Source of the DNA: a virus
Virus record (IMG/VR): IMGVR_UViG_3300028364_000033
Location: 1 to 64,000 of that record
Length of the DNA stretch: 64,000 nucleotides
Reading direction: 5' to 3' (one strand)
Positions 7,185 through 57,773 of the stretch are shown piece by piece; position 1 is the stretch's first letter; every line of letters begins with the position of its first letter. The notes beneath the pieces were generated by a model. It ran no database searches and was not told the DNA's origin. It saw only the letters and a list, made by a program, of their open reading frames with translations. The translations under genes and the position numbers were made by a program.

Positions 7185-7964
7185 TTATTTTTTTAATCGT
7201 TTCCATAATGGGGTTTTCTCACCATTATGTTGTCTATGGATTTCTCTCATTCTTCTAACACACATAAGCACATAAGTTTTAGAATTAAATCCATAAGAAC
7301 CAATGGCCCACATGTCATTAACCTCAACCAAACAAGTCTTACCTTCCTTAGTTATGCCCACATCCAATGTGTAAGCACAATTTGCTGATTCATAATCCTT
7401 TATCATATTCTCGATAACACTAACATCTGGAAATAATTTAAAATCCCCTGTGTAGTGTTGAATACCTTTCAATTCACCCTCATGAACGAAACATCTATGT
7501 TCTGAAACAAATTCTAGTATTTCACTACAATATAATGGTGTATCATCCTCAACATTATAATAATCCCTCAAGAAATCAAAACCTAAGTTGTTTTCAATTA
7601 CACAACCAGTAAATAATTTAACACCTTCACTAGGTTTAATGAATATTGGGAACTTACCCTTTGATACCACATGCTCAAATGTTGTTTCTATAATCTCCCT
7701 ACCTAAGTATTCACTTAATTCCATTGGATACCCTAGATACTTTGGTGTTTTTACACCACAAGCTTTAAAAAACTCGGTACTGGCCTGTACAGAACCTATT
7801 ACGATATCATCACTTAAGTTTAATACTCTATTGGTTAATGTATTCTCCATATCATCACCATCGAATGGTATAATTGTAAATCCCATCTGTTTTAATGGTT
7901 CAACTGACATATAAACAAAGTCATCCAACCACTCTCCACCTATTTTTTCTAAATATGCTTTCAT
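7185..7964 (-). CDS. ATP-grasp fold protein
   Basis: FPIFIKPSEG (ATP-grasp K-loop like PVVVKP), CLVEVND (Mg/ATP-binding E-x-N), overall RimK/Ddl-like layout. Confidence 0.5.
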   Translation of the reverse strand: MKAYLEKIGGEWLDDFVYMSVEPLKQMGFTIIPFDGDDMENTLTNRVLNLSDDIVIGSVQASTEFFKACGVKTPKYLGYPMELSEYLGREIIETTFEHVVSKGKFPIFIKPSEGVKLFTGCVIENNLGFDFLRDYYNVEDDTPLYCSEILEFVSEHRCFVHEGELKGIQHYTGDFKLFPDVSVIENMIKDYESANCAYTLDVGITKEGKTCLVEVNDMWAIGSYGFNSKTYVLMCVRRMREIHRQHNGEKTPLWKRLKK

Positions 7965-43759: not shown

Positions 43760-44416
43760 TTATTTATCATTTTCGACTTTATCTTTAAATTTTATAAAAT
43801 CCCAAGCTGGACTTACATCTGAGTAATATTTTTTAAAATTACTCTTATATAACACCCCACTAAACCTATCGGGCTCATCGAAACTTATATTATGTGGTAT
43901 TACATTTATTGGTATATTAAAGTCCGTACATAATTTTCTAACCAATAGTGTTGCTGAATCAAGTTGTGGTATACTGTACGGTGCCCAAAATCTTTTATTC
44001 CTCCATTTTTTATCTACCACATTATCGTCCCTACCATAAACTTCACCAATATAGTTAACATATTGCCCACTATTCAGTGGGTTATCCACTAACCAACCCT
44101 CATTTTCTAAAACTATCGATATACTTTTTTTATTTAATTCTAAATTATTTAGAAACTGTGAATAATATTTAGGTGGGAAGTGTTCTATAATTTCCCCACT
44201 TAACGTAACGGTATAATTCGCACATTTATTGTAACTACCAAACCACCTAGTCGTCCAACCTATGAAATGATTCATTTTGGTCGAGAATGAATTACCTATA
44301 ATTATTCTATTTTTTTTAGTTTCTTTTTTTACAAAATTTAATTCACTTAATCTATAATCTGACTTATTTATTATCATTTGGATTACCACCAGTTCTTTTG
44401 TAATAGATAATATCAC
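43760..44416 (-). CDS. hypothetical protein
   Basis: ORF track. Confidence 0.35.
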   Translation of the reverse strand: MILSITKELVVIQMIINKSDYRLSELNFVKKETKKNRIIIGNSFSTKMNHFIGWTTRWFGSYNKCANYTVTLSGEIIEHFPPKYYSQFLNNLELNKKSISIVLENEGWLVDNPLNSGQYVNYIGEVYGRDDNVVDKKWRNKRFWAPYSIPQLDSATLLVRKLCTDFNIPINVIPHNISFDEPDRFSGVLYKSNFKKYYSDVSPAWDFIKFKDKVENDK

Positions 44417-45605
44417 CGTTACCGTCTCTTATTTCTTTATTGGCACCGATTCTATCTATCTTATTGTTATTTCTATCTGGAATATCTACGGAAAACCCTC
44501 TTTCCCTTATTTCTTTTATGTCATTCCTGGTTATTCTATTGTTATTAGCTAACTCTGTTGGGGTTGCTGTAGTTTCTTCCGTAAAATCATCTTCTATTTC
44601 AACTTCGGAATCATCTTCGGATATTATATCATTTACCGCATCATTTACCGCATCATTTACCGCATCATTTACAGCCTCAGTTGCTCCCTCAGTTACTCCC
44701 TCAGTTACTCCCTCAGTTACTCCCTCAGTTACTCCCTCACTTACCGTAATGGGGTTATATTCGACCCCAACAGGCTTCTCTACTTGAGGGTCAACTTGTT
44801 CACCCTCATCTTTTTTATTAACTATTTTATTAAAAACTATAATCAATAATACGGCCATAGGGTCACCTATTATTATTAATAACAATATAAACCATTTCAT
44901 AACCTCATCCATTGATTTACCAGTTACACTCGATAGGTATTTTAATGAATTAAGTTCTGCGGCTCCCTTATTATCTTGATTTAATTCGATTACCGACAAT
45001 GATTTAGAATTTAAACTATCATTAATTACGTTTAAATTATTAATTAATTCATTTATATCATCTTCAATAGTTTTTATATCTTCGTTAGCCTCCGATATTA
45101 TTTTTTCAGTACCTCTTGCTGTGGTAACCCAATTTTTATCATATAACGCAACCAATCTATCTTCTTGTTGCGCTCTAACCTCCAATATTTTTGTTATCCT
45201 ACCTCTTTTAAGTTCAATATCTTTATTGATATTTTCCTTAGATTCAATAAGGAGGGTTTTACTACCCTCTATTAACTCAATTTGGTTGTCTATACCAATC
45301 ATTGATGCATATGATTCTTGGTATGAGGTGCTTAAGAACCCATAAATACCAACGGAGGTTATTATCATGGATATTACGACACCAATAGATAATAACAAGG
45401 AATACAACAAACCTATTTTTTTATAATAGGTATGTATCGCAGAAGTGGCTACTATCTTCGCAATCTCAATCGCAATGAAGAATAGTAGCCCCAACATACC
45501 AGCACCAGTAAAAACTTTTAATAATCCACTAACGGAAACAACCGCAACTATGGATGCCATACTAACAGCCATAAATAAAACTAAATATAATAATACTTTT
45601 TTCAT
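44364..45605 (-). CDS. multi-TM membrane protein with coiled-coil and in-frame tandem repeats (VTEG x4, NDAV x4)
   Basis: N-terminal 4 TM helices; DNA tandem repeats gtaactccctca x4 and accgcatcattt x3 at ~44630-44730. Confidence 0.45.
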   Translation of the reverse strand: MKKVLLYLVLFMAVSMASIVAVVSVSGLLKVFTGAGMLGLLFFIAIEIAKIVATSAIHTYYKKIGLLYSLLLSIGVVISMIITSVGIYGFLSTSYQESYASMIGIDNQIELIEGSKTLLIESKENINKDIELKRGRITKILEVRAQQEDRLVALYDKNWVTTARGTEKIISEANEDIKTIEDDINELINNLNVINDSLNSKSLSVIELNQDNKGAAELNSLKYLSSVTGKSMDEVMKWFILLLIIIGDPMAVLLIIVFNKIVNKKDEGEQVDPQVEKPVGVEYNPITVSEGVTEGVTEGVTEGVTEGATEAVNDAVNDAVNDAVNDIISEDDSEVEIEDDFTEETTATPTELANNNRITRNDIKEIRERGFSVDIPDRNNNKIDRIGANKEIRDGNGDIIYYKRTGGNPNDNK

Positions 45606-45627: not shown

Positions 45628-46458
45628 TTACTTATTTATTATATCGAATAAATTATCGGCATTATGTCTAAGTTTTCTTAGAGCCTTCTCCTTTATCTGG
45701 CGTATTCTTTCCTTGGTTAGATTATATTTTTCACCTATAACTTCTAATGTCATACTATCATAATCCTTATCGATACCAAAATAACAATTAATTATTTCCC
45801 TCTCTCTGTCGGAAAGTTCACTTAACATATTAACTAGTTCGTTTTTTATGATACCATCACCCTCATTGAATATATCGTCATAATCATAATCATTGTCAAT
45901 CAACAATTCAGATATCTCACTACCAGAATCGTTGATTATCTCATTAAATGATGAGCATTTGGCCAGGGATTTAAAATCAACCAATGAGTCATCATAAAAA
46001 TCGGTGAAATCGGCCTGTCTGCAATTGTCAATCTCAAATTTCTCAAATTTTTTCTTTGTTAATGATATTTTGTTTATAACATTAGATGGATATCTAATGG
46101 TTCTGGAGTTATCGTTTAAACTTTGCATTATGGATTGTCTAATCCACCAAACAGCATAAGATATAAAACGAAACCCTCTAGTATGGTCATAGCGTTTTGC
46201 CGCTTTCACCATACCAAGATTACCTTCACTAATTAAATCACTTAATTGTAACCCTTGTCCTTGGTATTCTTTTGCAACGGATACAACAAATTTTAAGTTA
46301 GCACTCACCAACTTGTCAATTGCCACTTGACTACCATTTTTTATTTGTATCGCTAACTCAACTTCTTCTTCTGGAGTTAGTAATTTTGTTTTCTTTACGT
46401 CTTTAAAGTATTTTGAAATACTTTCATCGTCATTAAAATTAATATATTTTTTACTCAT
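45628..46458 (-). CDS. sigma-70 family RNA polymerase sigma factor
   Basis: region 2 DLISEGNLGMVKAAKRYDHTRGFRFISYAVWWIRQSI; region 4.2 HTH TLEVIGEKYNLTKERIRQIKEKALRKLR. Confidence 0.75.
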   Translation of the reverse strand: MSKKYINFNDDESISKYFKDVKKTKLLTPEEEVELAIQIKNGSQVAIDKLVSANLKFVVSVAKEYQGQGLQLSDLISEGNLGMVKAAKRYDHTRGFRFISYAVWWIRQSIMQSLNDNSRTIRYPSNVINKISLTKKKFEKFEIDNCRQADFTDFYDDSLVDFKSLAKCSSFNEIINDSGSEISELLIDNDYDYDDIFNEGDGIIKNELVNMLSELSDREREIINCYFGIDKDYDSMTLEVIGEKYNLTKERIRQIKEKALRKLRHNADNLFDIINK

Positions 46459-47249: not shown

Positions 47250-49490
47250 TTATAAAGTTTTTATTTTAGAGATATTATTATCCTTTATTACCGTCACAAT
47301 TTGATTCGCCCAATCCTTAACTAAATCATTCTGAGTTATAAAGAAGACTATATCGAACATATCGGTTATTCTTTCGAATAATGGTCTCATGGCTGAAATA
47401 TTCTCTGGTGCAACCCTACCTAGGACCTCATCAAATGCAATGAAGTTAGGTTTTGGTAGATTTGACATTTTACCCAGTACACATCTTAACGCAATACTTG
47501 CGGCAGTCAATTCAAAGCCACTACCAGATTTTAATGGTTTCTCAACCCCATCCTTTATTAATAAATATCTAACTTCATTCTTATCGTCAACAAAAACTTC
47601 AACATCAAAATCGGTGATATCGTCAAGTAGTCTTTGTATCTCACTATTTATTATAGGTAGTACCGACCTAAGTACTAATTTACTAATACCCTTTTTACCG
47701 ACCATATCAATATACACCCTAAAGACTTTATCAACCTCCAACTCTTTATTTATGGTTTTTATTAAATCCGTTTTTAAGGTAATATCCTTATTGTTACTTT
47801 CCTTTAGGATACCATTTGACTGTATTTTATTATTGATGCTTTCTTTTTCACGTTCACAAACAATAAGTTTAGTGTCTACTATACTTATTTCACTATCAAG
47901 TTTAGCATTTTTATCAATACCACTTACATTTTCATTGTACTTATTCAAGTCGTCATTTTTAGTCTTAAGTGAATTTCTTAATGACCCAATTTCAACTTCT
48001 ACCCTATCCTTTCTTAATTCTAATTTATTTTTTTCATTAATTTTAACCTTTGCAACACTTAATTTCTCAATTTCAATATTGATAGATGATAATTTAACCC
48101 TTAACGACATTAAGGCTTCACCTAATGCACCTATTTGTAATTTATGAGTGTTTATGTGTTCGGTGTTATCAACGTCCTCTAAGGCTCTGTTACAAGCCTG
48201 ACATATACCACCAGCTATTAAATCATCGATTACTTTGTCTAATCTAATTATTTCAGCTTCTTTAACAGCTATATCACTACTTACGGATGTTTTTTCTTTG
48301 CTTAGTTCAAAATCTCTATCCTCATCAAAATTTATATCACCGATTTTTTTTATTTTGACCTTTAACTCAGCTATCTCATTTTTATACCCAACACCCGTTT
48401 GAGTTATGGTGCTAATCTCTTGATTCAATTTAGATGGGTTTAGTGTTAATATTTTTGCATCTATTTTTTCCTTTGAACTTATAAGGGTAATTTTTTCTTC
48501 GTTTAATTTAACTTGAATTTCCTTTTGGTCAGTTAGCTCAATATCTAAAATTTTTCTTTGACTATTTAACTCGTCTATTTTACCTTGATGCTCACTAATT
48601 TCTTCGTCTAAAGTTTCAACATCATAAATGTTTGACTTCATAGTTTTTGAAAATGTTGAATACATCTTACGGGCAGCGGTTTCTTTCAACGATATCACCT
48701 CTAGACCTATAAATCTAGTTAATAGTTTACCACTTTCTCCAGATGTAGAATCAACAAGGGTGTCAAGATTTCTAGATGTGGCTAGGACCACTAAATCAAA
48801 ATCACTTTCGGTACCAACGGTTTCTTTTATTAAATTTGTCGTTTTAGTGGCATCTTCATCGTTCATTAACTCTTCTTCACCATCTGGTAAGATTATGTAG
48901 TAGTTTAATTTATTCTCTATGGTCCAACCACCCTTACGTTTAGCCTTCCTCTTTAAAAAACGCTCTATAATTATCTCGTCATCACCTTCAATTTGAATCA
49001 TGGCCCTAAGAATAAGGTCATTGTTTTCACTAAATTGATTGAATACCTGTTCATTCTTATCGGTTTTGGTTGTTGTACCAAAAAATAAGAATTTAATTGC
49101 ATCAATTGTTAAGGTCGTGTTATGTGATACTATATCATTTGAATAATACTGATGAACTTTATCTACTTGAATATCATATAAAGTGTCTCGCTCATTTAAT
49201 AATTTAATTGACTTAACATTTGAAATACCATTCCTAACTTGAATAGGTGTTCCGATTTCAATATTCTTTAAAACTTCAAATTCCCCATCTTCTTTTTTTA
49301 ATCTATGATAATCAGCACCTTCAACATACAAACCATTTTCTAGTTCACATCTATATACCTCGGCATTTTCTTCGGTTATACCACACCATGTAATATCATG
49401 AAAGCCATATGGTGTGTCCACCTCAAAACCTAAATCACCATATTTTTTGTAAATTTCATTTAATTTACCTATCTCAATTTCTTTAACCAT
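47250..49490 (-). CDS. 46: SbcC/T4 gp46-like recombination ATPase, C-terminal fragment preceded by a ~124-aa C-intein-like segment
   Basis: N-terminus ends LYDIQVDKVHQYYSNDIVSHN|T (intein block G, HN plus Thr+1); continues TLTIDAIKFLFFG (T4 gp46 TMLEAITFGLFG); long coiled coil; C-terminal signature/D-loop SGSGFELTAASIALRCVL...FIAFDEV. Confidence 0.7.
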   Translation of the reverse strand: MVKEIEIGKLNEIYKKYGDLGFEVDTPYGFHDITWCGITEENAEVYRCELENGLYVEGADYHRLKKEDGEFEVLKNIEIGTPIQVRNGISNVKSIKLLNERDTLYDIQVDKVHQYYSNDIVSHNTTLTIDAIKFLFFGTTTKTDKNEQVFNQFSENNDLILRAMIQIEGDDEIIIERFLKRKAKRKGGWTIENKLNYYIILPDGEEELMNDEDATKTTNLIKETVGTESDFDLVVLATSRNLDTLVDSTSGESGKLLTRFIGLEVISLKETAARKMYSTFSKTMKSNIYDVETLDEEISEHQGKIDELNSQRKILDIELTDQKEIQVKLNEEKITLISSKEKIDAKILTLNPSKLNQEISTITQTGVGYKNEIAELKVKIKKIGDINFDEDRDFELSKEKTSVSSDIAVKEAEIIRLDKVIDDLIAGGICQACNRALEDVDNTEHINTHKLQIGALGEALMSLRVKLSSINIEIEKLSVAKVKINEKNKLELRKDRVEVEIGSLRNSLKTKNDDLNKYNENVSGIDKNAKLDSEISIVDTKLIVCEREKESINNKIQSNGILKESNNKDITLKTDLIKTINKELEVDKVFRVYIDMVGKKGISKLVLRSVLPIINSEIQRLLDDITDFDVEVFVDDKNEVRYLLIKDGVEKPLKSGSGFELTAASIALRCVLGKMSNLPKPNFIAFDEVLGRVAPENISAMRPLFERITDMFDIVFFITQNDLVKDWANQIVTVIKDNNISKIKTL
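49119..49490 (-). other. C-intein-like segment (IntC) of an apparent split intein in gp46
   Basis: terminal VSHN followed by Thr; hydrophobic beta-strand-rich Hint-like sequence. Confidence 0.55.
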
Positions 49491-50505
49491 ATTTTAAAAA
49501 TTTTTTACATTTATCTATTACTTTTTCTTTATTCCCCCAACGATATTCTGAATCCCAAATAACTAACACATCAAAACCTTCTTTATTGGCAATATCTAAC
49601 TTACGTTTATCTTTATCCCACATTTCTTGTGCGGTGATTGTTTTTCTAAAAGGGTGTGGATAATCTTCTGCTAAATATTTTTTAGGGTTTCCATGATATT
49701 GGTCACCATTATATTCGATTATCTTTTTATTTTTGATATCAGTAAAATCATACATCCAAATCCCACCTTCTGATTCAGATTTATTTAATTTAAACTCTTT
49801 ATTATGTGTGGCAAAATTAATTTTATCCCTATCTTCTATTTTATATTGTTTTAATAATTTATAAAACAAATCTTGTGATATCTTAGAATACCCTATTTTA
49901 AGATTTCCATTATTGGTTAAAGATTTAGACCACTTATTCTGTCTTTCGGTGAAAATTTTTAAACCTTCAACCTCACCATATTTTTTAACACAAATTTCTT
50001 TTGAGAATGTAGATTGTCTTTCACTACGCTTTATTTTAGCTTCATCCTCAGAATAACCTTTATTTAACCAATATTGTAAATTAGCACTACCCTTTTTACT
50101 ATTTTCACTCCTTTTTATTTCCCTTCCACTCCAAATACGCTTCCCCTCAATTTCTCCATACCTAGCTATACAGCCCCTTTCTGAAACCAATTTTTGACCT
50201 TCTATTTGTAAAATAGCCTCACTTTCTGAATAACCTAACTTAAACCAGTATTCGGGATTAACGGGTCTAAGTGTTTTTATATGAGGGTCAATTAAATCTT
50301 CATCCATTCCCCTTTCTAACCAATATTTTTTGGAATATGCAGAGCGCTTAGGAATTTTAATTTTATTATCCCTTAATCTTTTTATTATAACACCAGTATC
50401 AACATTATATTTTTTAGCGATATTATTTGTTGATTGAAATTCATTAACATACATTTTAACAATATCATTTAACTCCACTTTTGAAAATTTATATACTTTT
50501 CCCAT
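49483..50505 (-). CDS. Vsr-fold (PD-(D/E)xK) homing-endonuclease-like protein with N-terminal DNA-binding repeats, sited between the two halves of fractured gp46
   Basis: C-terminal EYNGDQYHGNP ... GFDVLVIWDSEY resembles Vsr FVDGCFWHGH ... IRIWEHE; repeated YW-x-GYSE-EA and KKYGE motifs. Confidence 0.55.
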   Translation of the reverse strand: MGKVYKFSKVELNDIVKMYVNEFQSTNNIAKKYNVDTGVIIKRLRDNKIKIPKRSAYSKKYWLERGMDEDLIDPHIKTLRPVNPEYWFKLGYSESEAILQIEGQKLVSERGCIARYGEIEGKRIWSGREIKRSENSKKGSANLQYWLNKGYSEDEAKIKRSERQSTFSKEICVKKYGEVEGLKIFTERQNKWSKSLTNNGNLKIGYSKISQDLFYKLLKQYKIEDRDKINFATHNKEFKLNKSESEGGIWMYDFTDIKNKKIIEYNGDQYHGNPKKYLAEDYPHPFRKTITAQEMWDKDKRKLDIANKEGFDVLVIWDSEYRWGNKEKVIDKCKKFLKYG

Positions 50506-50566
50506 AATTAAATTATTTATATATAAATATAACCGTTTAATCAGGGAAGTAAAGAGGTTTAAATAA

Positions 50567-51148
50567 TTATTTTAATTCTTCGGGTATAAAACCCAGTTTT
50601 TTCTCTATTTCATCGAGATTATACTTAATTTTAATTTTAGTGTTGTACCTAATACATTTTCCGCCTTGGTTTGCTGGGTCTGAGTTAACAACGGTTAAAC
50701 CCTGGTACCTGTCAACGGGAAAGAAATTATTTTCACCAAAGGATAGGAAGTTGTTTAACATCATCCATTTGATTTTATATTTTCTGTGTAATTTATCCTC
50801 TAATTCAATATTTAATTCAGCATTAACTTTATTATCTAAATCAATTAATCTATTAAAATCAACATCTTTATTTTCTCTACTTAACCATTCTTTAAATAAT
50901 TCCCTTTGATATTTAATGGTCATTATATTGTCTATACTACCACCTTCTATTTGTATAGTCTCACCATCCCTATTAACTTTAACGGGTTGATATATCACAT
51001 TTACATTTTGCGATGGAATACCATATTTCGTTGAGAAGAATTTCCTAACCTTATTTCTAGCTTCTCTAGAATAATGTTCAGGTTTATCATTCCAATATAC
51101 CTTTATCTTACCATTTGCTGGTACGACTATACTATTATTATTCACCAT
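50567..51148 (-). CDS. 46: SbcC/T4 gp46-like ATPase N-terminal fragment ending in a 29-aa N-intein-like segment
   Basis: YKIKWMMLNNFLSFGENN ... TVVNSDPANQGGK|C aligns with T4 gp46 YKNIMSVGQNG ... LITGRNGGGKS|T; ORF stops 29 aa after the Cys. Confidence 0.65.
   Translation of the reverse strand: MVNNNSIVVPANGKIKVYWNDKPEHYSREARNKVRKFFSTKYGIPSQNVNVIYQPVKVNRDGETIQIEGGSIDNIMTIKYQRELFKEWLSRENKDVDFNRLIDLDNKVNAELNIELEDKLHRKYKIKWMMLNNFLSFGENNFFPVDRYQGLTVVNSDPANQGGKCIRYNTKIKIKYNLDEIEKKLGFIPEELK
50570..50656 (-). other. short N-intein-like segment (IntN, 29 aa, CIRYNTKIKIKYNLDEIEKKLGFIPEELK)
   Basis: starts with Cys exactly at the Walker-A GK|(S/T) position. Confidence 0.5.
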
Positions 51149-51551
51149 AAATATCTTTATTTTTATCCTTTAATAACTTTAATTCTTTTTCAAGTGCTTC
51201 AACGTTAGTTTTTAACACATTTCGCTCTTTAGTGATTTCGACTAAATCAATGGTTTGATTGTCAAACTTTAACTGTAATTCAACTATTTGACTATTTAAT
51301 TTGGTGTTGGCTTCATCATCGGTAACATAAACTTCTTTTTCAACATAAACTTCTTTTTCGACAATAACTTCTTTTTCAACAATAACCTCTTTAGTTTTAA
51401 ATGGTGTGCTACCGTATTTTTCAGCAGTAAACCCCTGTTTAATTATTTTAAGATTAAATTCACTAATATTCGGAATATCGTTTACTTTACAATATTCCCA
51501 AATTTCATCTTTTAAGTCCTTAGGTATCTCCATCTTTATTAATTTTTTCAT
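51138..51551 (-). CDS. hypothetical protein with VEKE repeats
   Basis: ORF track; EVIVEKEVIVEKEVYVEKEVYV repeat. Confidence 0.3.
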   Translation of the reverse strand: MKKLIKMEIPKDLKDEIWEYCKVNDIPNISEFNLKIIKQGFTAEKYGSTPFKTKEVIVEKEVIVEKEVYVEKEVYVTDDEANTKLNSQIVELQLKFDNQTIDLVEITKERNVLKTNVEALEKELKLLKDKNKDIYGE

Positions 51552-51961
51552 TGGTTTTATCTAAAAACACTATTTCTTTTGTATTTTCATCAATTTCAAT
51601 ACTTAATATAGGTTTATCAACCCTATAGAAATAATCTTCATCGATTTTACCAAACTCACCATTTACTATTTTATATTTTTTAAATTCATCTGGCAAAGAT
51701 AATAAAAATGTTATTAATTCGTGTAATTCCATCTTATATATTTGTTAAAACTTCAACATTATTATCTAAATCATCCAGCGAGTTTATCTTAAATTGGTAG
51801 AACCCAAAATCGGTCTCTATGTCACACTCGGTATATGTCCTAGATTCAACATCCCAGAATAAAAACCCATGTTTATTAACAGTCTCACCAAAGTTTTGTT
51901 GTATTAGGCTACTGCTAAAACACATTGGGACTATTTTTTTAATTTTAATCTTTTTTTCCAT
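51520..51961 (-). CDS. 47: possible C-terminal fragment(s) of the gp47/Mre11-like protein (two overlapping ORFs 51734..51961 and 51520..51732, perhaps joined by a frameshift)
   Basis: KHGFLFWDVESRTYTECDI weakly resembles T4 gp47 RGFWMFDTETERTEFI. Confidence 0.3.
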
Positions 51962-52862
51962 ATTTTTTAATTTCGTTAAATAATTTGAATTTAAAATTTT
52001 TCTTTCTAATATCGGTTTCGCAAAATCTAATCAAATTATAGTCATTTTTATAAGCTAATTTATTTTTAAATTCATCATTTTTTTTATTTATTTTCTGAAC
52101 CTCTGTTAATATTTTATCATCATATTTATTTGGGTTGCTATGCCAATAATCGCCATCGGCTTCAATTAATAAATTAAATTCATTTAAGTAGAAATCATAA
52201 GACCTAAAATTTATTTTATTATAACTAATTTCAAATTGTGTCTCAAATTTAATGTTTTGTTCCATTAATAACTTACCAATTTTAATTTCAATGCTAGTCC
52301 CTTTATTGTTTTTATTAGCCATTAATAATAACTCAAACGCAGTTTTACCATATTTTTTTATACAAGTATTATCAGCTTTAGTTCTATACATATCTATTTC
52401 TGATATATTTTTAACACCATATTTTCGTAATAAAGTATTTTCTCGTTTCTCTAACGATTTTTCATCAGAACCACACCAAAATCCATTTTCTTCAAAAAAT
52501 CGCTCTTGACCTAATTTAACATTATCTCTATGATTTTCATTAATCCATAACCCCTTCATTCTATTCGAATTCCATACCTTCCATTCATCAGTATGTTTAT
52601 TATTATAAACTGGATTACCTTCTTTTAAGTAAACTTCTTTTTGATGTTCATCCTTACATTTTCTTGAACAATATTTAGATTTACCAGTTTTAAGTTTATT
52701 CGGTAATGTGTTAAATTCAACCTTACAAAATAAACATACGGTTTTAACTCTCTCTATTTTATCTTTTTTATAACTATTATATTGGCATTTTCTGGTACAA
52801 TATTTTTGTGCCTTTCGTTTAGCGTTATATTCGTTACCACATTTTTCACATTTTTTATACAT
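51945..52862 (-). CDS. Vsr-fold (PD-(D/E)xK) homing-endonuclease-like protein with N-terminal zinc fingers, paralog of 49483..50505
   Basis: CEKCGN..C..C and CLFCK..C..C zinc ribbons; RKYGV/KKYGK repeats; C-terminal IEADGDYWHSNPNKY Vsr/DUF559-like motif. Confidence 0.55.
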   Translation of the reverse strand: MYKKCEKCGNEYNAKRKAQKYCTRKCQYNSYKKDKIERVKTVCLFCKVEFNTLPNKLKTGKSKYCSRKCKDEHQKEVYLKEGNPVYNNKHTDEWKVWNSNRMKGLWINENHRDNVKLGQERFFEENGFWCGSDEKSLEKRENTLLRKYGVKNISEIDMYRTKADNTCIKKYGKTAFELLLMANKNNKGTSIEIKIGKLLMEQNIKFETQFEISYNKINFRSYDFYLNEFNLLIEADGDYWHSNPNKYDDKILTEVQKINKKNDEFKNKLAYKNDYNLIRFCETDIRKKNFKFKLFNEIKKYGKKD

Positions 52863-52922
52863 ATCTAAAATTTTGTTGTATTATTATTTAATAATAAATA
52901 TAACAACAAACGTGAAAAGATG

Positions 52923-53603
52923 TTATTCATCCATAACCCAACCCATTTTTTCATACCTTTCTAATTCTGATTCATAAATTTCTTTTTTTTCAATATTATA
53001 AAAACAACTTCTTTTATGAATATCCCCTAATAAAACCATATCACAACCATCAAAATGTTCCAATGATTGCGCTTCATCGAATTTATAACCTATATCCGTA
53101 GTTGCGCCAGCTAATGGTGCATGATATAATCCGATATATGTTTTATCATCACCGAATTCAAGTCTAGCGGATTCAATATCTGGTCTACTATTTTCCTCAA
53201 AAATAGAATAAACACACCAAACTATGTTTCCGTCTTCAAAACACCCAGTATCTCTATAATATTGTATTTTACAATCAGGTAACAACTTAACCATAGGTGT
53301 GATACTATCTAACCTATCCTTGTTATTTTCTAACAAATCATGATTGCCAGCAATTATAACAACTGGTGCTATTTTATCTAACTTTCTAAGGAACCAGGTC
53401 CCTAGCATTAATAATTCATTAGATATGGTTATTTTTTGGTGAACATAATCACCAGCGATAACTATTCTAATTTCATCTCTTTCATAACCTTCGACTAATT
53501 TCCTAATCTCCTTTAATGTTGTCTTAAAGGCTTCACCATATTCAGAATGCATTTTGTATGTTCTGATGTGAATGTCGGCCATATGTATTATTTTTTTTAC
53601 CAT
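52923..53603 (-). CDS. 47: SbcD/Mre11-like (T4 gp47-like) calcineurin-fold nuclease, N-terminal fragment with C-terminal Cys-initiated 27-aa tail
   Basis: phosphoesterase motifs MADIHI, AGDYVH, GNHD, GLYH, GDIHK; shorter than T4 gp47 (226 vs 339 aa); tail CFYNIEKKEIYESELERYEKMGWVMDE resembles gp46 IntN-like tail. Confidence 0.6.
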   Translation of the reverse strand: MVKKIIHMADIHIRTYKMHSEYGEAFKTTLKEIRKLVEGYERDEIRIVIAGDYVHQKITISNELLMLGTWFLRKLDKIAPVVIIAGNHDLLENNKDRLDSITPMVKLLPDCKIQYYRDTGCFEDGNIVWCVYSIFEENSRPDIESARLEFGDDKTYIGLYHAPLAGATTDIGYKFDEAQSLEHFDGCDMVLLGDIHKRSCFYNIEKKEIYESELERYEKMGWVMDE

Positions 53604-54556
53604 TATAATCTACTTTTTAGTAATTTAACCCTATCTTCTTCGGCTATTAAATCAGTTTTTTTCTTTTTCATCACCTCTTTAATTCTAGGTAATGGTGGCA
53701 TTGTTAACACTATATTTATAAAATCCCTAGATACTCTAAATTCTTTATAAACTCCCTCAGCCGATAAATGAACAATAATACAACCAAATAATTTAATATC
53801 CTCATATTTTGTACCTTTTAACATATCCAATATTAATCTAGCATATAATGGTAATTGTATTTTATAGTGCCCTAAGGACGTATCCATTTCATCTTCAAAC
53901 GGAGGTAACATAGCTTCCGTATATGAATGTACCTCGAAATTTTTAGGCTTATTCGATTTCCAGTCGGTGACTATGAAACCCAAATTACCCTCACCATCGA
54001 ACATTATCCATACCTTATCTGGTTGCCCAGTATACTTTAATTCGTTACTACCCAACACCATTTCCGTATCCAATAAAACCGCACCTCGCCTATGCATCAA
54101 TCTTATAAAATTATGGCCAGCATCAATCATGGCATTGCCATCGTTAATCTGGTCTTCATTACAATCGAATATGGGCTTTCTAACGTCCTTATAAGAACCA
54201 TATTGGGCCAGTAGGTCCATTTCTAATAAATAATGTACCCTAGACCCCTTAGAATTAGCATAATCCGCTGTACCCCTCCATTCGGTTAACAGTTTGTCTT
54301 GTTCAAATATATCACCATTACACATATCGAATGATTTTTCAAGTGCTGGAAACTCATTGTAGAATTGTTTAATAACAGTTGATACCGATGGAAATTTAGT
54401 TGTCATGTCACCCTCTTTTGTTCTAATATGATAAGTGTGGGTATCTTCAACAAACGTTAATTCAAGTTCTTTTTGTTTTTCGGTAATTATATTTCTTATT
54501 TCCTCACCTATCTTTAATAACTCGGCTTTATAGTTGGTATTTGGTTCGTTTTTCAT
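53603..54556 (-). CDS. PD-(D/E)xK (RecB/Cas4-like) nuclease-fold protein
   Basis: VEDTHTYHI ... GQPDKVWIM ... FIVTDWKS consistent with D / D-x-K nuclease motifs. Confidence 0.4.
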   Translation of the reverse strand: MKNEPNTNYKAELLKIGEEIRNIITEKQKELELTFVEDTHTYHIRTKEGDMTTKFPSVSTVIKQFYNEFPALEKSFDMCNGDIFEQDKLLTEWRGTADYANSKGSRVHYLLEMDLLAQYGSYKDVRKPIFDCNEDQINDGNAMIDAGHNFIRLMHRRGAVLLDTEMVLGSNELKYTGQPDKVWIMFDGEGNLGFIVTDWKSNKPKNFEVHSYTEAMLPPFEDEMDTSLGHYKIQLPLYARLILDMLKGTKYEDIKLFGCIIVHLSAEGVYKEFRVSRDFINIVLTMPPLPRIKEVMKKKKTDLIAEEDRVKLLKSRL

Positions 54557-55156: not shown

Positions 55157-55732
55157 ATGAAAAATTATATAAAACAAAGGTTAAGGGAAGATTTAGAATA
55201 TCATCACGTTTCAGATGCTACAAAGGATGAATATACTCTAAATGAAGATGCTATCACAAATGATTTAAGAAATGAATATATAAAATTGGGTCTTAAGACT
55301 TCATTTAGTAACCCAAACTTAGCAAAAAGGGCATTGGAAAATATTTTATATATACTTAATAAATTACCTCAAACTATTACTTTATATAGAGTAGTATTTG
55401 TTAGTAGTATAGAAAGTATTGATACAAAACATATAGGTTCACACTATGTTTTAAGTGATAAAGATTTATCATCTAGTCACAGTCAGAAAAGTCATGTTGG
55501 TGGTGGTGAACCTGTTCTACTTATAGTTAAATCACCCAAGAACTTAATAGATGTAGATGCCACAATAAGAAATAGAATGGAATTTCCGAATGAAAAAGAA
55601 ATAACTTTAAAAAATAGAGGTTTAGGGGCTAAAATTATAAGTAAAACACCTTTCTTAAGTAGTGATAGTGAAGAAGATTTAATCGGCTTACCTGATGATG
55701 ATTTTGATTTTGGTTACGATGACGATTTTTAA
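55157..55732 (+). CDS. hypothetical protein (lone plus-strand gene), acidic C-terminus
   Basis: ORF track; ends 4 nt inside primase gene stop region. Confidence 0.4.
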   Translation: MKNYIKQRLREDLEYHHVSDATKDEYTLNEDAITNDLRNEYIKLGLKTSFSNPNLAKRALENILYILNKLPQTITLYRVVFVSSIESIDTKHIGSHYVLSDKDLSSSHSQKSHVGGGEPVLLIVKSPKNLIDVDATIRNRMEFPNEKEITLKNRGLGAKIISKTPFLSSDSEEDLIGLPDDDFDFGYDDDF

Positions 55733-56691
55733 TATAACTCAATTTCTGGAACCCTTTTAGAAGTTTTTAATAATTTTATAATACCAGACCTACCTTCATT
55801 TTTAAAAATAGAAGCTGGGTCTTCTTTATACGGTGGAGTACATAACTTAATCTTATTATATAAATCACCAACATTAAGTTCTTTATAAATTCTAATAGCA
55901 TCATCGTAGGCATCCTCATCTAATAATATTACAATATCCGCTCTGGACTTGGTTAATATCATTTGTTTAACTCTAACACTTAAATTTTTACCCAGTATAG
56001 GTATTGAGTTTGGAATTACTATATGGTCAAAGGCTCCTTCTACCAAATATATTGTAGAATCCCAATTAATCTTATCCTCATTAAAGATAATCGCTTGTTT
56101 TTCAGCATCTGGGTTATTATATTTTGGTTTATTGAAATCGTCCCAAGCCCTACCAACGAAATAATTTAAATCACCTACCTCATCGTATGATGGGATTATG
56201 ACCCTGTTCCTAAATTTACCATAAGTAGTAAAACCTATATTAAATTCTTTAATTATTTCATCAGTAAATCCTCTATCTATTAGATAATAATATGCGTGTG
56301 AATATTTATACTCACTACCAGTGCACTCACTAAGTTTTTTAAAGCCATCGGGTAAATGTACAACCGTTGCTTGTATATCATTTAGGTTCGGTTGATAATC
56401 ATTCTCTGGTTTAAGTAATAAATAATCCTTTAGTATTTTTTTATTACCGTATCGTTTGATTAATTTAGGTATTTTACCGTACATGTTGTTTTGGTAGTTA
56501 CAAACCCAACACTTAAATATACCACGTTTATAATTAATCGCTAATTTATGTCTACCATCACCTTGACCCATAGGAAGTCCCTTATCCTCAGCACAAGCTG
56601 GACAATCCCAACTTGTTTGACCACTTTCTTCATTGTGTTCATGTGGCTCCCCTAAAAAACTTCTAAATATGTTAAGTATGATATTATCCAT
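55729..56691 (-). CDS. 61: DNA primase (T4 gp61-like): zinc ribbon plus TOPRIM
   Basis: WDCPACAEDKG...HKLAINYKRGIFKCWVCNY zinc-binding domain; YLVEGAFDHIVIP TOPRIM (T4 YVLEGPIDSLFI). Confidence 0.7.
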   Translation of the reverse strand: MDNIILNIFRSFLGEPHEHNEESGQTSWDCPACAEDKGLPMGQGDGRHKLAINYKRGIFKCWVCNYQNNMYGKIPKLIKRYGNKKILKDYLLLKPENDYQPNLNDIQATVVHLPDGFKKLSECTGSEYKYSHAYYYLIDRGFTDEIIKEFNIGFTTYGKFRNRVIIPSYDEVGDLNYFVGRAWDDFNKPKYNNPDAEKQAIIFNEDKINWDSTIYLVEGAFDHIVIPNSIPILGKNLSVRVKQMILTKSRADIVILLDEDAYDDAIRIYKELNVGDLYNKIKLCTPPYKEDPASIFKNEGRSGIIKLLKTSKRVPEIELY

Positions 56692-56778: not shown

Positions 56779-56931
56779 TATGGGAAGACCAAAATTAAAT
56801 GAAAGTGATAAGAAAATAAAAGTTAGTATAACTTTGGATAAAGACTTAAATGACCAGTTAAATAAAATCACAAATAATAAATCTAAATTAATTGGGGAGT
56901 TGTTAGAAACACATATAAAAGAAAATGAATA
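56779..56931 (+). CDS. small ribbon-helix-helix-like protein (50 aa), translationally coupled to downstream GIY-YIG gene
   Basis: MGRPKLNESDKKIKVSITLDKDLNDQLNK... beta-strand/helix pattern of Arc/CopG RHH; stop overlaps downstream ATG (AATGAATAA). Confidence 0.4.
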
Positions 56932-57773
56932 AAATAGGTATATATAGGATAATAAATATAAAAAACGGTAAATTTTATATTGGTAGTTCAATTAATATAA
57001 CTAAAAGATGGTATGACCATAAACGTACACTTAGAAAGGGTATTCATGATAATGATTATTTGCAAAAATCTTGGAACAAATATGGTGAAAATAATTTTGA
57101 GTTTAATATAATCGAAATTATTGAAAATGTTACCGACCTATTAATACGTGAACAATATCATTTAGATGTTATGAAACCATTTGATAAAGATAAAACATAT
57201 AATATATGTGGCTTTGCTAATAACATGTTAGGTTTTAAGCATTCAGACGAAACAAAAATGAAATTATCTAAAATTCATAAGGGTAATAAATATAACTTAG
57301 GTAATAAACATTCTGATGAAACTAAAAAAATGATGTCCATTTCACATACTGGTGAAAAACATTATAGTGAAACTATAATTAAACTTATAAAAACTAAAAC
57401 TGGGGTTGGTCATTCAAGTGAAACTAAAAATAAATTATCCAACATAAAAAAAGGTAAACCAGCGTTAAATAAAAGAAAAGTTTACCAGTTAGATACTGAT
57501 GGTAATACAATTAAACTATGGGATAGTTTAACTGATGCAGCTAATAATTATAATATCGACCCATCTAGAATTAGTTCAGTTTGTAATGGTAGAACTAAAA
57601 TATGTATTGGGTTTAAGTGGGTGTATTTTTCTTCAAATGAAAAAACTAAATTAACTGATACAATTAAAAAAGAAATTATAAATCTATATAAAACTGGTTA
57701 TTATTCAACCAGAAAATTAGCTGATTTATTTAATATTAGTAAATCAACAATTTGGAATGTGGTTAATAAATGA
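56925..57773 (+). CDS. GIY-YIG homing endonuclease (I-TevI/Seg-like) with NUMOD3-like repeats and C-terminal HTH
   Basis: GIYRIINIKNGKFYIGSSINITKRWYDH; repeats GFKHSDETKMKLS / GNKHSDETKKMMS / GVGHSSETKNKLS; C-term RKLADLFNISKSTIWNVV. Confidence 0.75.
   Translation: MNKIGIYRIINIKNGKFYIGSSINITKRWYDHKRTLRKGIHDNDYLQKSWNKYGENNFEFNIIEIIENVTDLLIREQYHLDVMKPFDKDKTYNICGFANNMLGFKHSDETKMKLSKIHKGNKYNLGNKHSDETKKMMSISHTGEKHYSETIIKLIKTKTGVGHSSETKNKLSNIKKGKPALNKRKVYQLDTDGNTIKLWDSLTDAANNYNIDPSRISSVCNGRTKICIGFKWVYFSSNEKTKLTDTIKKEIINLYKTGYYSTRKLADLFNISKSTIWNVVNK

Follow-up and report, generated by a model that had tools for sequence, protein, structure and literature searches.

Fractured gp46 and gp47 genes in a viral metagenome record: two free-standing Vsr-like endonuclease genes, probably of the homing type, one with and one without a split intein

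The 64,000-nucleotide stretch analysed here (positions 1 to 64,000 of the IMG/VR virus record IMGVR_UViG_3300028364_000033; hereafter the window) encodes the two subunits of an Mre11/Rad50-type recombination nuclease, gp46 (SbcC/Rad50-like) and gp47 (SbcD/Mre11-like), and both genes are broken by a free-standing open reading frame (ORF). ORF A (49483..50505, 340 amino acids (aa)) lies within gp46 and ORF B (51945..52862, 305 aa) within gp47, both on the minus strand and at the coordinates given in a preliminary description made from the sequence. The two ORFs are probably independently acquired, free-standing Vsr-like (EDxHD) homing endonucleases, one per subunit gene. The breaks themselves differ in kind, a distinction missing from the preliminary description: a split intein is present in gp46 and none in gp47. 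The evidence observed here comprises the anatomy of the loci, the nuclease fold, invariant catalytic-type residues, exact insertion junctions, empty and occupied alleles, and a gp46 cassette better conserved than its host gene.

Two breaks of different kinds

Comparison with uninterrupted gp46 and gp47 alleles from related viral loci (numbered L001 onwards) upholds the claim that both endonuclease genes are located where a recombination gene has been fractured. Eleven distinct related loci contain an uninterrupted gp46 reading ANQGGK^T(T/S)...D..KF (the caret marks the insertion point; the nucleotide sequence of the empty site of L010 type is ...CCAGCAAATCAAGGTGGTAAA^ACTACACTTACTATTGATGC...), and the insertion therefore falls exactly between the Lys and the Thr/Ser of the Walker A motif. 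In the window, the N-extein reads ...SDPANQGGK^CIRYNTKIKIKYNLDEIEKKLGFIPEELK up to a stop codon, with Cys1 directly after GGK, and the C-terminal intein fragment (IntC) ends ...LYDIQVDKVHQYYSNDIVSHN^TTLTIDAIKFLFFG (IVSHN^T). The joined extein nucleotide sequence matches the empty alleles, and the predicted spliced product (164+622 = 786 aa) has the same GGKTT as those alleles.

The intein assignment draws on several features. IntC carries the block B His (EGADYH), block F LYDIQVDKVHQYYSN (LYDIQV..HQYYSN) and the terminal IVSHN, and is matched by the Pfam family Intein_splicing both alone (E=3e-5) and when joined to the N-terminal fragment, IntN (E=3.5e-7). Among structures in the PDB, the joined 29+124 residues match the gp41-1 intein (E=1.5e-5) and VidaL (E=2e-4, VidaL residues 23-142), and IntN is conserved in 18 gp46-type loci. 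Since block B lies in the C-terminal fragment, the intein is split after block A, away from the usual endonuclease-domain position, and the short IntN with block A only, paired with a long IntC with blocks B, F and G, has the motif layout that defines an atypically split intein. The gp46 protein is thus probably repaired at the protein level by the split intein. The 3' end of ORF A overlaps the start of IntC by 8 bp.

The gp46/ORF A locus resembles the fractured genes described by Dassa et al. 2009 (PMC2677866) in its adjacent same-strand host ORFs, the intein halves at their junction, the free-standing Vsr-like endonuclease between them, the 3' overlap, a predicted upstream hairpin with TATAAATA, and the phage origin. 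However, gp46/SbcC is not among the eight host types of that study, and the window intein is split after block A (29/124 aa), a geometry that Dassa et al. 2009 saw once (in a terminase locus whose IntC has 122 aa). In the terms of that study, the ORF A locus is a fractured gene that combines an unlisted host with the rarer split geometry. The naturally atypically split inteins GOS-TerL, AceL-TerL, VidaL and PolB16 OarG share the short IntN (15-37 aa, block A only) and the IntC of >100 aa, and relative to these the gp46/SbcC host is new. While natural atypically split inteins (e.g., AceL-TerL, GOS-TerL, PolB16) are called rare in later literature, one is present in each of the 80 ORF A-type loci considered below. 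In the accessible portions of the sources, gp46/SbcC/Rad50 appears neither among published fractured hosts nor in the P-loop intein survey; literature searches likewise found no gp46/SbcC/Rad50 split intein, which is not proof of absence.

At the gp47 break, the intact alleles (259-276 aa) read GDIHKRQ-F---(G)IPI--PSSLIQQNFGE, whereas the N-terminal piece in the window runs on as GDIHKRS-CFY-NIEKKEIYESELERYEKMGWVMDE to a stop codon and the C-terminal piece starts with MEKKIKIKK-IVPMCFSSSLIQQNFGE. An acidic tail (the last ~24 residues of the N-terminal piece, NIEKKEIYESELERYEKMGWVMDE, about 52926-52997) and a basic head (the first ~9 residues of the C-terminal piece, MEKKIKIKK) are thus present, both of which are missing from 11 intact alleles, and the start of the C-terminal fragment overlaps the 3' end of ORF B by 17 bp. 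A split intein at this position was considered and rejected, as the tails, with ~33 residues in total, have no terminal HN and fall far below the length of a HINT domain. Tails of this kind are found at the same gp47 site in at least 10 loci with ORF B relatives (endonuclease identity 31-74%), including GC-rich phages and lineages in which the C-terminal part of gp47 is fused to gp46; in all ten, the N-tail has a net charge of -2 to -9 and the C-head of +3 to +6. In L005 (5292-5704), gp47 is split at the same point and the acidic tail and basic head are kept, with a gap of only ~70-110 nt between the pieces and no endonuclease gene in it. This locus is a fractured gene that lost its endonuclease, so the split form of gp47 is viable on its own.

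A similar break was described by Dassa et al. 2009 (PMC2677866) in an SbcD-like locus from Lake Gatun, where a Vsr-like ORF splits the gene and "25 C-terminal and nine N-terminal residues" are extra. Host type, gene order, the missing intein, the extra residues and the 3' overlap are all as in the window, no substantive difference is apparent, and the locus of ORF B looks essentially like a further allele of that published case. A second precedent is the nrdA gene of phage Aeh1, split by mobE, whose product needs the insertion-derived tails for its activity (Crona et al. 2011, PMC3045599). The gp47 break is alike in that an essential gene is split by a free-standing endonuclease gene, without an intein, into tailed fragments, but MobE belongs to the HNH family, and the host gene and tail sequences are also unlike those of gp47/ORF B. 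By analogy with Aeh1 NrdA, the tails may hold the two gp47 pieces together.

The two endonucleases

The preliminary description had called the two genes paralogous, on the grounds of a shared C-terminal motif and repeated N-terminal modules, and this is accurate for the nuclease domain only. The C-terminal motifs (IIEYNGDQYHGNP...DKDKRKL...VLVIWDSE in ORF A; LIEADGDYWHSNP...NDEFKNKL...LIRFCETD in ORF B) have a common core, (N/D)GD-x-(Y/W)H-x-NP, followed by a (K/N)D-x-x-K-x-K-L helix and then a hydrophobic strand ending in W(D/E), although the 'IW-E/D' part of the motif as first described reads RFCE in the window copy of ORF B. The two proteins are 28% identical over 112 aa by BLASTP (E=4e-5), and alignment of the two family profiles (30 and 31 homologs) with hhalign gives a probability of 96.8% and E=2e-10 over ~97 columns, all C-terminal, a similarity beyond chance.

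Outside this domain, the preliminary description holds in part: a tandem repeat is present in ORF A and zinc ribbons in ORF B, but little is common to the two N-terminal regions. The ORF A repeat of ~58 aa (YW-x-x-GYSE-x-EA ... C-x-x-(K/R)YGE-x-EG; 44% identity between copies, E=6e-12) is unclassified, since Pfam searches with the whole protein and with its N-terminal half returned noise only (GYF). ORF B has two CxxC...CxxxC zinc-ribbon modules, in which all eight Cys are invariant. Nothing in the N-terminal regions was aligned by hhalign, and the overlap outside the nuclease domain is a short C(I/V)KKYG segment (E=0.005). The two families are thus separate, with different DNA-binding regions, and their occurrence is independent: ORF A relatives are found without ORF B in L001, L011 and L026 (intact gp47), and ORF B relatives without ORF A in L017-L019 (intact gp46, 780-788 aa).

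The Vsr-like fold proposed in the preliminary description is borne out by AlphaFold2 (AF2) models built on the family alignments (mean predicted local distance difference test score 87.0 for ORF A and 87.8 for ORF B), whose best confident matches are, for both proteins, Vsr (1VSR/1CW0) and the catalytic domain of the homing endonuclease I-Bth0305I (3R3P). The likeness to EDxHD/Vsr-like homing endonucleases such as I-Bth0305I, also part of the original proposal, is accordingly sustained, 3R3P being matched by both models and by the ORF B profile. For ORF B, Foldseek gives 1cw0 (E=2e-3), 3r3p (E=7e-3) and 1VSR, at probability 1.0, and the family profile matches 3R3P (E=1.6e-4), 3HRL and 1CW0 by sequence. 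Direct PDB sequence searches with the single ORF A and ORF B sequences returned nothing meaningful, and the sequence link of ORF A to the EDxHD family runs only via the ORF B profile (the hhalign match above).

ORF A consists of an N-terminal helix-turn-helix (HTH; ~9-46), tandem helical repeats (~56-201) and a Vsr/EDxHD nuclease domain (~205-340) with residues D253, E264, N266, D268, H271 and D299. In ORF B, the zinc ligands (Cys5/8/22/26 and Cys43/46/65/69) are followed by DUF7487-like helical modules (~residues 134-172) and a nuclease domain (~186-300) with E192, D223, E234, D236, D238, H241 and D263. The catalytic positions of I-Bth0305I are E170, D196, N208, H213 and D222 (Taylor et al. 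2011, PMC3239194). Their ORF B equivalents (E192, D223, D236, H241 and D263), located by HMMER alignment to 3R3P, do not vary among 31 sequences. The ORF A residues D253, N266 (N/H), H271 and D299 are invariant in 30 homologs, D299 lying inside a KDKRKL motif shared with I-Bth0305I.

Pfam detects no NUMOD domain in ORF A or ORF B, while the bipartite build is present in both. Apart from NUMOD and the first acidic residue of ORF A, both genes have the features by which the Vsr-like/EDxHD homing-endonuclease family can be recognized. They differ from I-Bth0305I (PMC3239194; PDB 3R3P) in being free-standing, whereas the gene of that enzyme lies within a recA group I intron, and in their accessory regions, with NUMOD2/HTH repeats in I-Bth0305I, an HTH and the unclassified ~58-aa repeat in ORF A, and zinc ribbons in ORF B.

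Database names ('very-short-patch-repair endonuclease') suggest that such proteins could instead be bona fide Vsr mismatch-repair nickases, with which they share a fold and whose name the source annotations give to relatives. This is very improbable. The Vsr repair enzymes are single-domain proteins of ~150 aa, whereas ORF B and ORF A are twice that size (305 and 340 aa) and carry large, sequence-specific DNA-binding modules; the Pfam Vsr score of ORF B (18.4 bits) is below the cutoff of 27, and ORF A has no match. The genes also lie inside broken genes with a sporadic distribution, the locus has no cytosine methyltransferase partner, and the family is found essentially in viral contigs only.

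Leaders and expression signals

Dassa et al. 2009 (PMC2677866) reported that the endonuclease genes of fractured loci overlap the downstream fragment by 6-69 bp at their 3' end and are preceded by a hairpin, often with TATAAATA. In the ORF A leader, TATAAATA (50514-50521) lies beside its inverted copy, and the predicted hairpin pairs the start-codon region. The leaders of 17 gp46-type loci have a conserved element, CTTTACC...GGTTATATTTAT, and all but one of these homologous leaders (16 of 17) are predicted to be more stable than shuffled sequences (mean z-score -2.5), although RNAalifold found no consensus structure for the 17. In the ORF B spacer, the hairpin UUUGUUGU...ACAACAAA is weakly predicted (z=-1.6), and an element, GTTATATTTAT...TAAATAAT, is common to the ORF A leader, with a similar element in L017 and L019. 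Control of expression by a hairpin and late promoter may apply here as in the loci from which the idea is drawn in the literature.

Downstream of gp46 lies a sigma-70-family gene (276 aa, 45628-46458, minus strand). All related loci retrieved over a sufficient length have a match to it on the downstream side of gp46, and Sigma70 r2/r4 domains are recorded in the L001, L017 and L019 homologs. The promoters of this phage may therefore not be T4-like, which bears on the reading of TATAAATA.

Distribution, mobility and mechanism

Thirteen distinct related viral loci were found with the gp46 extein. The intein-ORF A cassette is present in two of these (L001, L011), and ORF B in none (0/13). The closest relatives by host genes are empty: compared with the window, L002, L003 and L009 show identities of 63-64% for the gp46 extein, 71-80% for the N-terminal part of gp47 and 60-66% for the sigma factor, and they lack IntC and ORF A. 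For the occupied loci L001 and L011, the same host proteins are 45-50%, 59-61% and 51-54% identical to those of the window, but IntC is 75-77% and ORF A 66-70% identical. The gp46 cassette is therefore more conserved than its host gene, as horizontal spread would predict. The homing-endonuclease reading of ORF A and ORF B is thus supported indirectly by comparative data, namely by insertions that are absent from most related phages while their sites are exactly conserved, by the greater conservation of the gp46 cassette relative to the host gene, and by the 3' overlap at both loci, with the addition at ORF A of the predicted upstream hairpin with TATAAATA.

The proposed course of events is as follows. 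The ORF A cassette (IntN - leader - ORF A - IntC) occupies the gp46 Walker A motif at the boundary of its Lys and Thr codons, and the gp46 N-extein with IntN, ORF A, and IntC with the gp46 C-extein would be made as three separate polypeptides. The 29-aa IntN and 124-aa IntC would then associate and trans-splice to give a gp46 of 786 aa in which the GGKTT P-loop is intact. With its N-terminal HTH and helical repeats, ORF A would bind gp46 alleles of co-infecting relatives that lack the intein, its C-terminal nuclease would cut near the Walker A codons, and repair from the occupied allele would copy the whole cassette. The ORF B cassette (acidic-tail codons - stop - leader - ORF B - start - basic-head codons) lies just after the gp47 GDIHKRQ motif; ORF B would cut intact gp47 alleles, and the gp47 pieces would reassemble non-covalently through their charge-complementary tails, as shown for Aeh1 NrdA/mobE.

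Several points weigh against this interpretation, in which cleavage and its specificity, trans-splicing and tail-mediated assembly are inferred steps. The ORF A family profile has no direct sequence match to any solved structure in the PDB, and the position of the first EDxHD Glu in ORF A is uncertain (Q211 does not vary, and 28 of 30 homologs have D/E at residue 212). For the leader, an explicit count over the 17 sequences found no covariation beyond shuffles in the start-codon stem, and counts of TATAAATA in the window show no enrichment (35 observed versus 26.5 expected). Slower evolution of intein and nuclease cores than of the coiled-coil-rich SbcC extein could partly explain the identities of the gp46 cassette. 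Additionally, ORF B relatives occupy one site down to 31% identity with kept tails, which resembles long vertical residence more than it does frequent homing. Finally, residue 281 of ORF B (52020-52022) is Cys in the window copy and Trp in 30 of 31 relatives (RFWE to RFCE), a change that may be neutral or may impair the enzyme.

The last two points lead to distinct alternatives. The endonucleases could be residents that no longer home, old passengers fixed in their lineages because loss is hard, or because they are useful in competition between phages (rival-genome cutting, marker exclusion). The ORF B relatives at an identical gp47 site, with tails kept to 31-43% identity even in GC-rich phages and in phages with gp47C-gp46 fusions, fit such residence, as do the gp46-type cassettes (49-70% endonuclease identity at one site) and the outliving of the endonuclease by the split in L005. 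This explanation is nonetheless unlikely, given that most related phages have empty sites, that the gp46 cassette is closer between phages than the host genes are, and that the catalytic-type residues are invariant, implying selection for nuclease activity; moreover, competitive cutting and homing are mechanistically the same act. Slightly less probable still is that the window copy of ORF B is an inactivated remnant, with the gp47 split tolerated and the endonuclease no longer acting. Trp281Cys and the endonuclease-less split allele in L005 speak for an inactive copy, but ORF B is full length and retains every catalytic-type residue as well as all eight zinc ligands, and one core-strand substitution need not abolish activity.

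The wider ORF A family

Homologs of ORF A number 635 in the metagenomic protein collection. Deposited phages contain distant relatives only (<=37% identity), including the 'putative VSR endonuclease' of the Aeromonas Aes123/144/509 records, and among 185,579 species genomes the family was found only in two contigs of metagenome-assembled genomes, both viral-looking. The family is thus almost wholly a viral one. The ORF A family profile retrieved 80 viral loci, with downstream DNA recovered in 65. In all 80, the endonuclease gene follows a host fragment ending in ...GK plus Cys and 28-62 further residues, and in 65 of 65 an IntC ending ...(I/M)(L/V)SHN^T/S follows the endonuclease. Classified by Walker A motif, the hosts are the T4-type terminase large subunit (39 loci), the second nucleotide-binding domain (NBD2) of a ClpB-like protein (21 loci), gp46/SbcC (18 loci) and a DnaB-like helicase (2 loci), and Pfam searches on representatives back these labels (Terminase_6N, AAA_2 with ClpB_D2-small, DnaB_C).

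Identities to the window differ along the cassette. The C-terminal half of ORF A (residues 140-340) is 54-77% identical in gp46-resident copies and 70-75% in several ClpB-resident copies, which puts the latter on a par with most of the former. The N-terminal 135 residues align over their full length among gp46-resident copies (39-70%) and give short local matches only across hosts, and IntC is 64-82% identical among gp46-resident copies (with an outlier, L040, at 44%) versus 27-39% across hosts. Such mosaic identities fit a common nuclease module joined to a DNA-binding region particular to each host gene, exchange of modules being a hypothesis. On the strength of this mosaic pattern (nuclease half versus N-terminus versus intein), a large, essentially viral lineage of composite elements can be proposed, in which an atypically split intein with a Vsr-like endonuclease gene after block A has specialised on the Walker A Lys^Thr/Ser junction at no fewer than five sites (at least gp46/SbcC, ClpB-like NBD1, ClpB-like NBD2, terminase and DnaB-like) in four unrelated types of ATPase, retargeted by swaps of the N-terminal region and with the nuclease half exchanged between genes. 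This proposal is tentative and falls a little short of an even chance.

Several members of the family have unusual arrangements. In L024 (1125-8011; also L025), a ClpB-like gene is fractured at both of its Walker A motifs (NBD1 and NBD2), a short IntN and a long IntC accompanying a separate ORF A-family endonuclease at each break, and a thymidylate synthase with an intein lies near this gene in L024. In L001 (7018-7536; also L028 and L029), an extra ORF of 172 aa stands between the ORF A homolog and IntC, and across the family the gap between endonuclease and IntC holds up to ~1.5 kb of additional DNA.

The locus and its neighbours

All genes across 47.2-54.6 kb are on the minus strand (Table 1). 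The phosphoesterase assignment of the 226-aa gp47 fragment (calcineurin type) comes from Pfam Metallophos (E=1.7e-11) and the SbcD-like phrog_100; in the 746-aa ORF, residues 9-124 match Pfam Intein_splicing and residues 125-744 the SbcC-like phrog_77 (E=8e-32). G+C content is ~25-33% across the locus, with a compositional break at neither ORF A nor ORF B. The locus has no nucleotide match among 50,697 deposited phage records, and the gp46 extein is <=25% identical to that of any deposited phage; the window therefore represents a phage lineage without a cultured relative. In the source collection, a 99%-identical copy of ORF A and the C-terminal 207 residues of ORF B (100% identical) occur on the same 102.6-kb Joint Genome Institute (JGI) contig. 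No further copy of ORF A, ORF B or the intein was found in the window; ORF 7185-7964, a candidate for an extra copy of the ORF A repeat, was rejected as a weak match only and encodes an ATP-grasp enzyme.

Table 1. Features of the gp46-gp47 locus in the window
Feature	Positions	Strand	Basis or remarks
Exonuclease	53603-54556	-	phrog_298
gp47 (SbcD/Mre11-like) N-terminal fragment, 226 aa	52923..53603	-	Metallophos, phrog_100, intact-allele alignment
Spacer 5' of ORF B, 60 nt	52863..52922	-	predicted hairpin UUUGUUGU...ACAACAAA
ORF B, probable free-standing homing endonuclease, 305 aa	51945..52862	-	AF2, Foldseek, family profile, invariant residues
gp47 C-terminal fragment, 75 aa	51734..51961	-	tblastn to C-termini of intact gp47 alleles; junction alignments
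70-aa ORF between the gp47 C-terminal fragment and the 137-aa ORF	51520-51732	-	
193-aa ORF (gp46 N-extein + IntN)	50567-51148	-	
gp46 (SbcC/Rad50-like) N-extein, residues 1-164, ends ...SDPANQGGK	50657..51148	-	colinear with intact alleles
IntN, 29 aa, CIRYNTKIKIKYNLDEIEKKLGFIPEELK	50570..50656	-	stop codon 50567-50569 directly after
ORF A leader, 61 nt	50506..50566	-	TATAAATA + inverted copy, predicted hairpin
ORF A, probable free-standing homing endonuclease, 340 aa	49483..50505	-	
746-aa ORF (IntC + gp46 C-extein)	47250-49490	-	
IntC, 124 aa	49119..49490	-	Pfam Intein_splicing; PDB intein matches
gp46 C-extein, 622 aa, starts at +1 Thr (TTLTIDAIKFLFFG...)	47250..49118	-	phrog_77, intact alleles

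Two small ORFs (70 and 137 aa) lie between the gp47 C-terminal fragment and the 193-aa ORF, the former being present in L004, L005 and L010 and missing in other relatives, the latter being conserved. In gp46, ~120 residues precede the Rad50/SbcC-type N-terminus (50780-51148, residues 1-~123), an extension that is kept in all related loci and matches no family. At 44364-45605 (minus strand), a predicted membrane protein contains peptides repeated in short tandem arrays, first (VTEG)n and then (VNDA)n.

A third free-standing homing endonuclease (56925-57773, plus strand), with a canonical GIY-YIG domain (I-TevI/Seg-like), three NUMOD3, two NUMOD1 and a C-terminal HTH, adjoins a primase-like gene (55729-56691). 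The exonuclease homologs of L004 (3211-5136), L005 (2691-4646) and L007 (3195-5114) have an in-frame insert of ~1 kb at TDWK^...THN^T that resembles a full-length intein with an endonuclease domain, the insert in L005 starting GLPLDT, with Gly instead of the usual Cys/Ser at position 1; the window exonuclease is uninterrupted.

Significance

The T4 gp46/47 nuclease, homologous to the Mre11/Rad50-type complex, processes the breaks that drive homing. In the window, two partner genes of one such complex in one phage would set side by side the two known routes to surviving a homing-endonuclease insertion, trans-splicing and non-covalent reassembly through insertion-derived tails. New with respect to the accessible literature are the gp46 host, the tight link between an endonuclease family and atypically split inteins at Walker A motifs, the conserved and charge-complementary gp47 tails, and the split allele without an endonuclease. 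The relatives of ORF A and ORF B are now labelled 'hypothetical' or 'very-short-patch-repair endonuclease', and the split gp46 and gp47 pieces risk being called as separate genes or pseudogenes. The gp46 intein would be a natural atypically split intein (29-aa IntN), a class that is called rare and is useful for semisynthetic labelling, and the loci counted here suggest that viral metagenomes contain dozens of others, each at a P-loop. An endonuclease family tied to Walker A split inteins across ATPases may offer a tractable system for understanding how homing endonucleases reach new genes.

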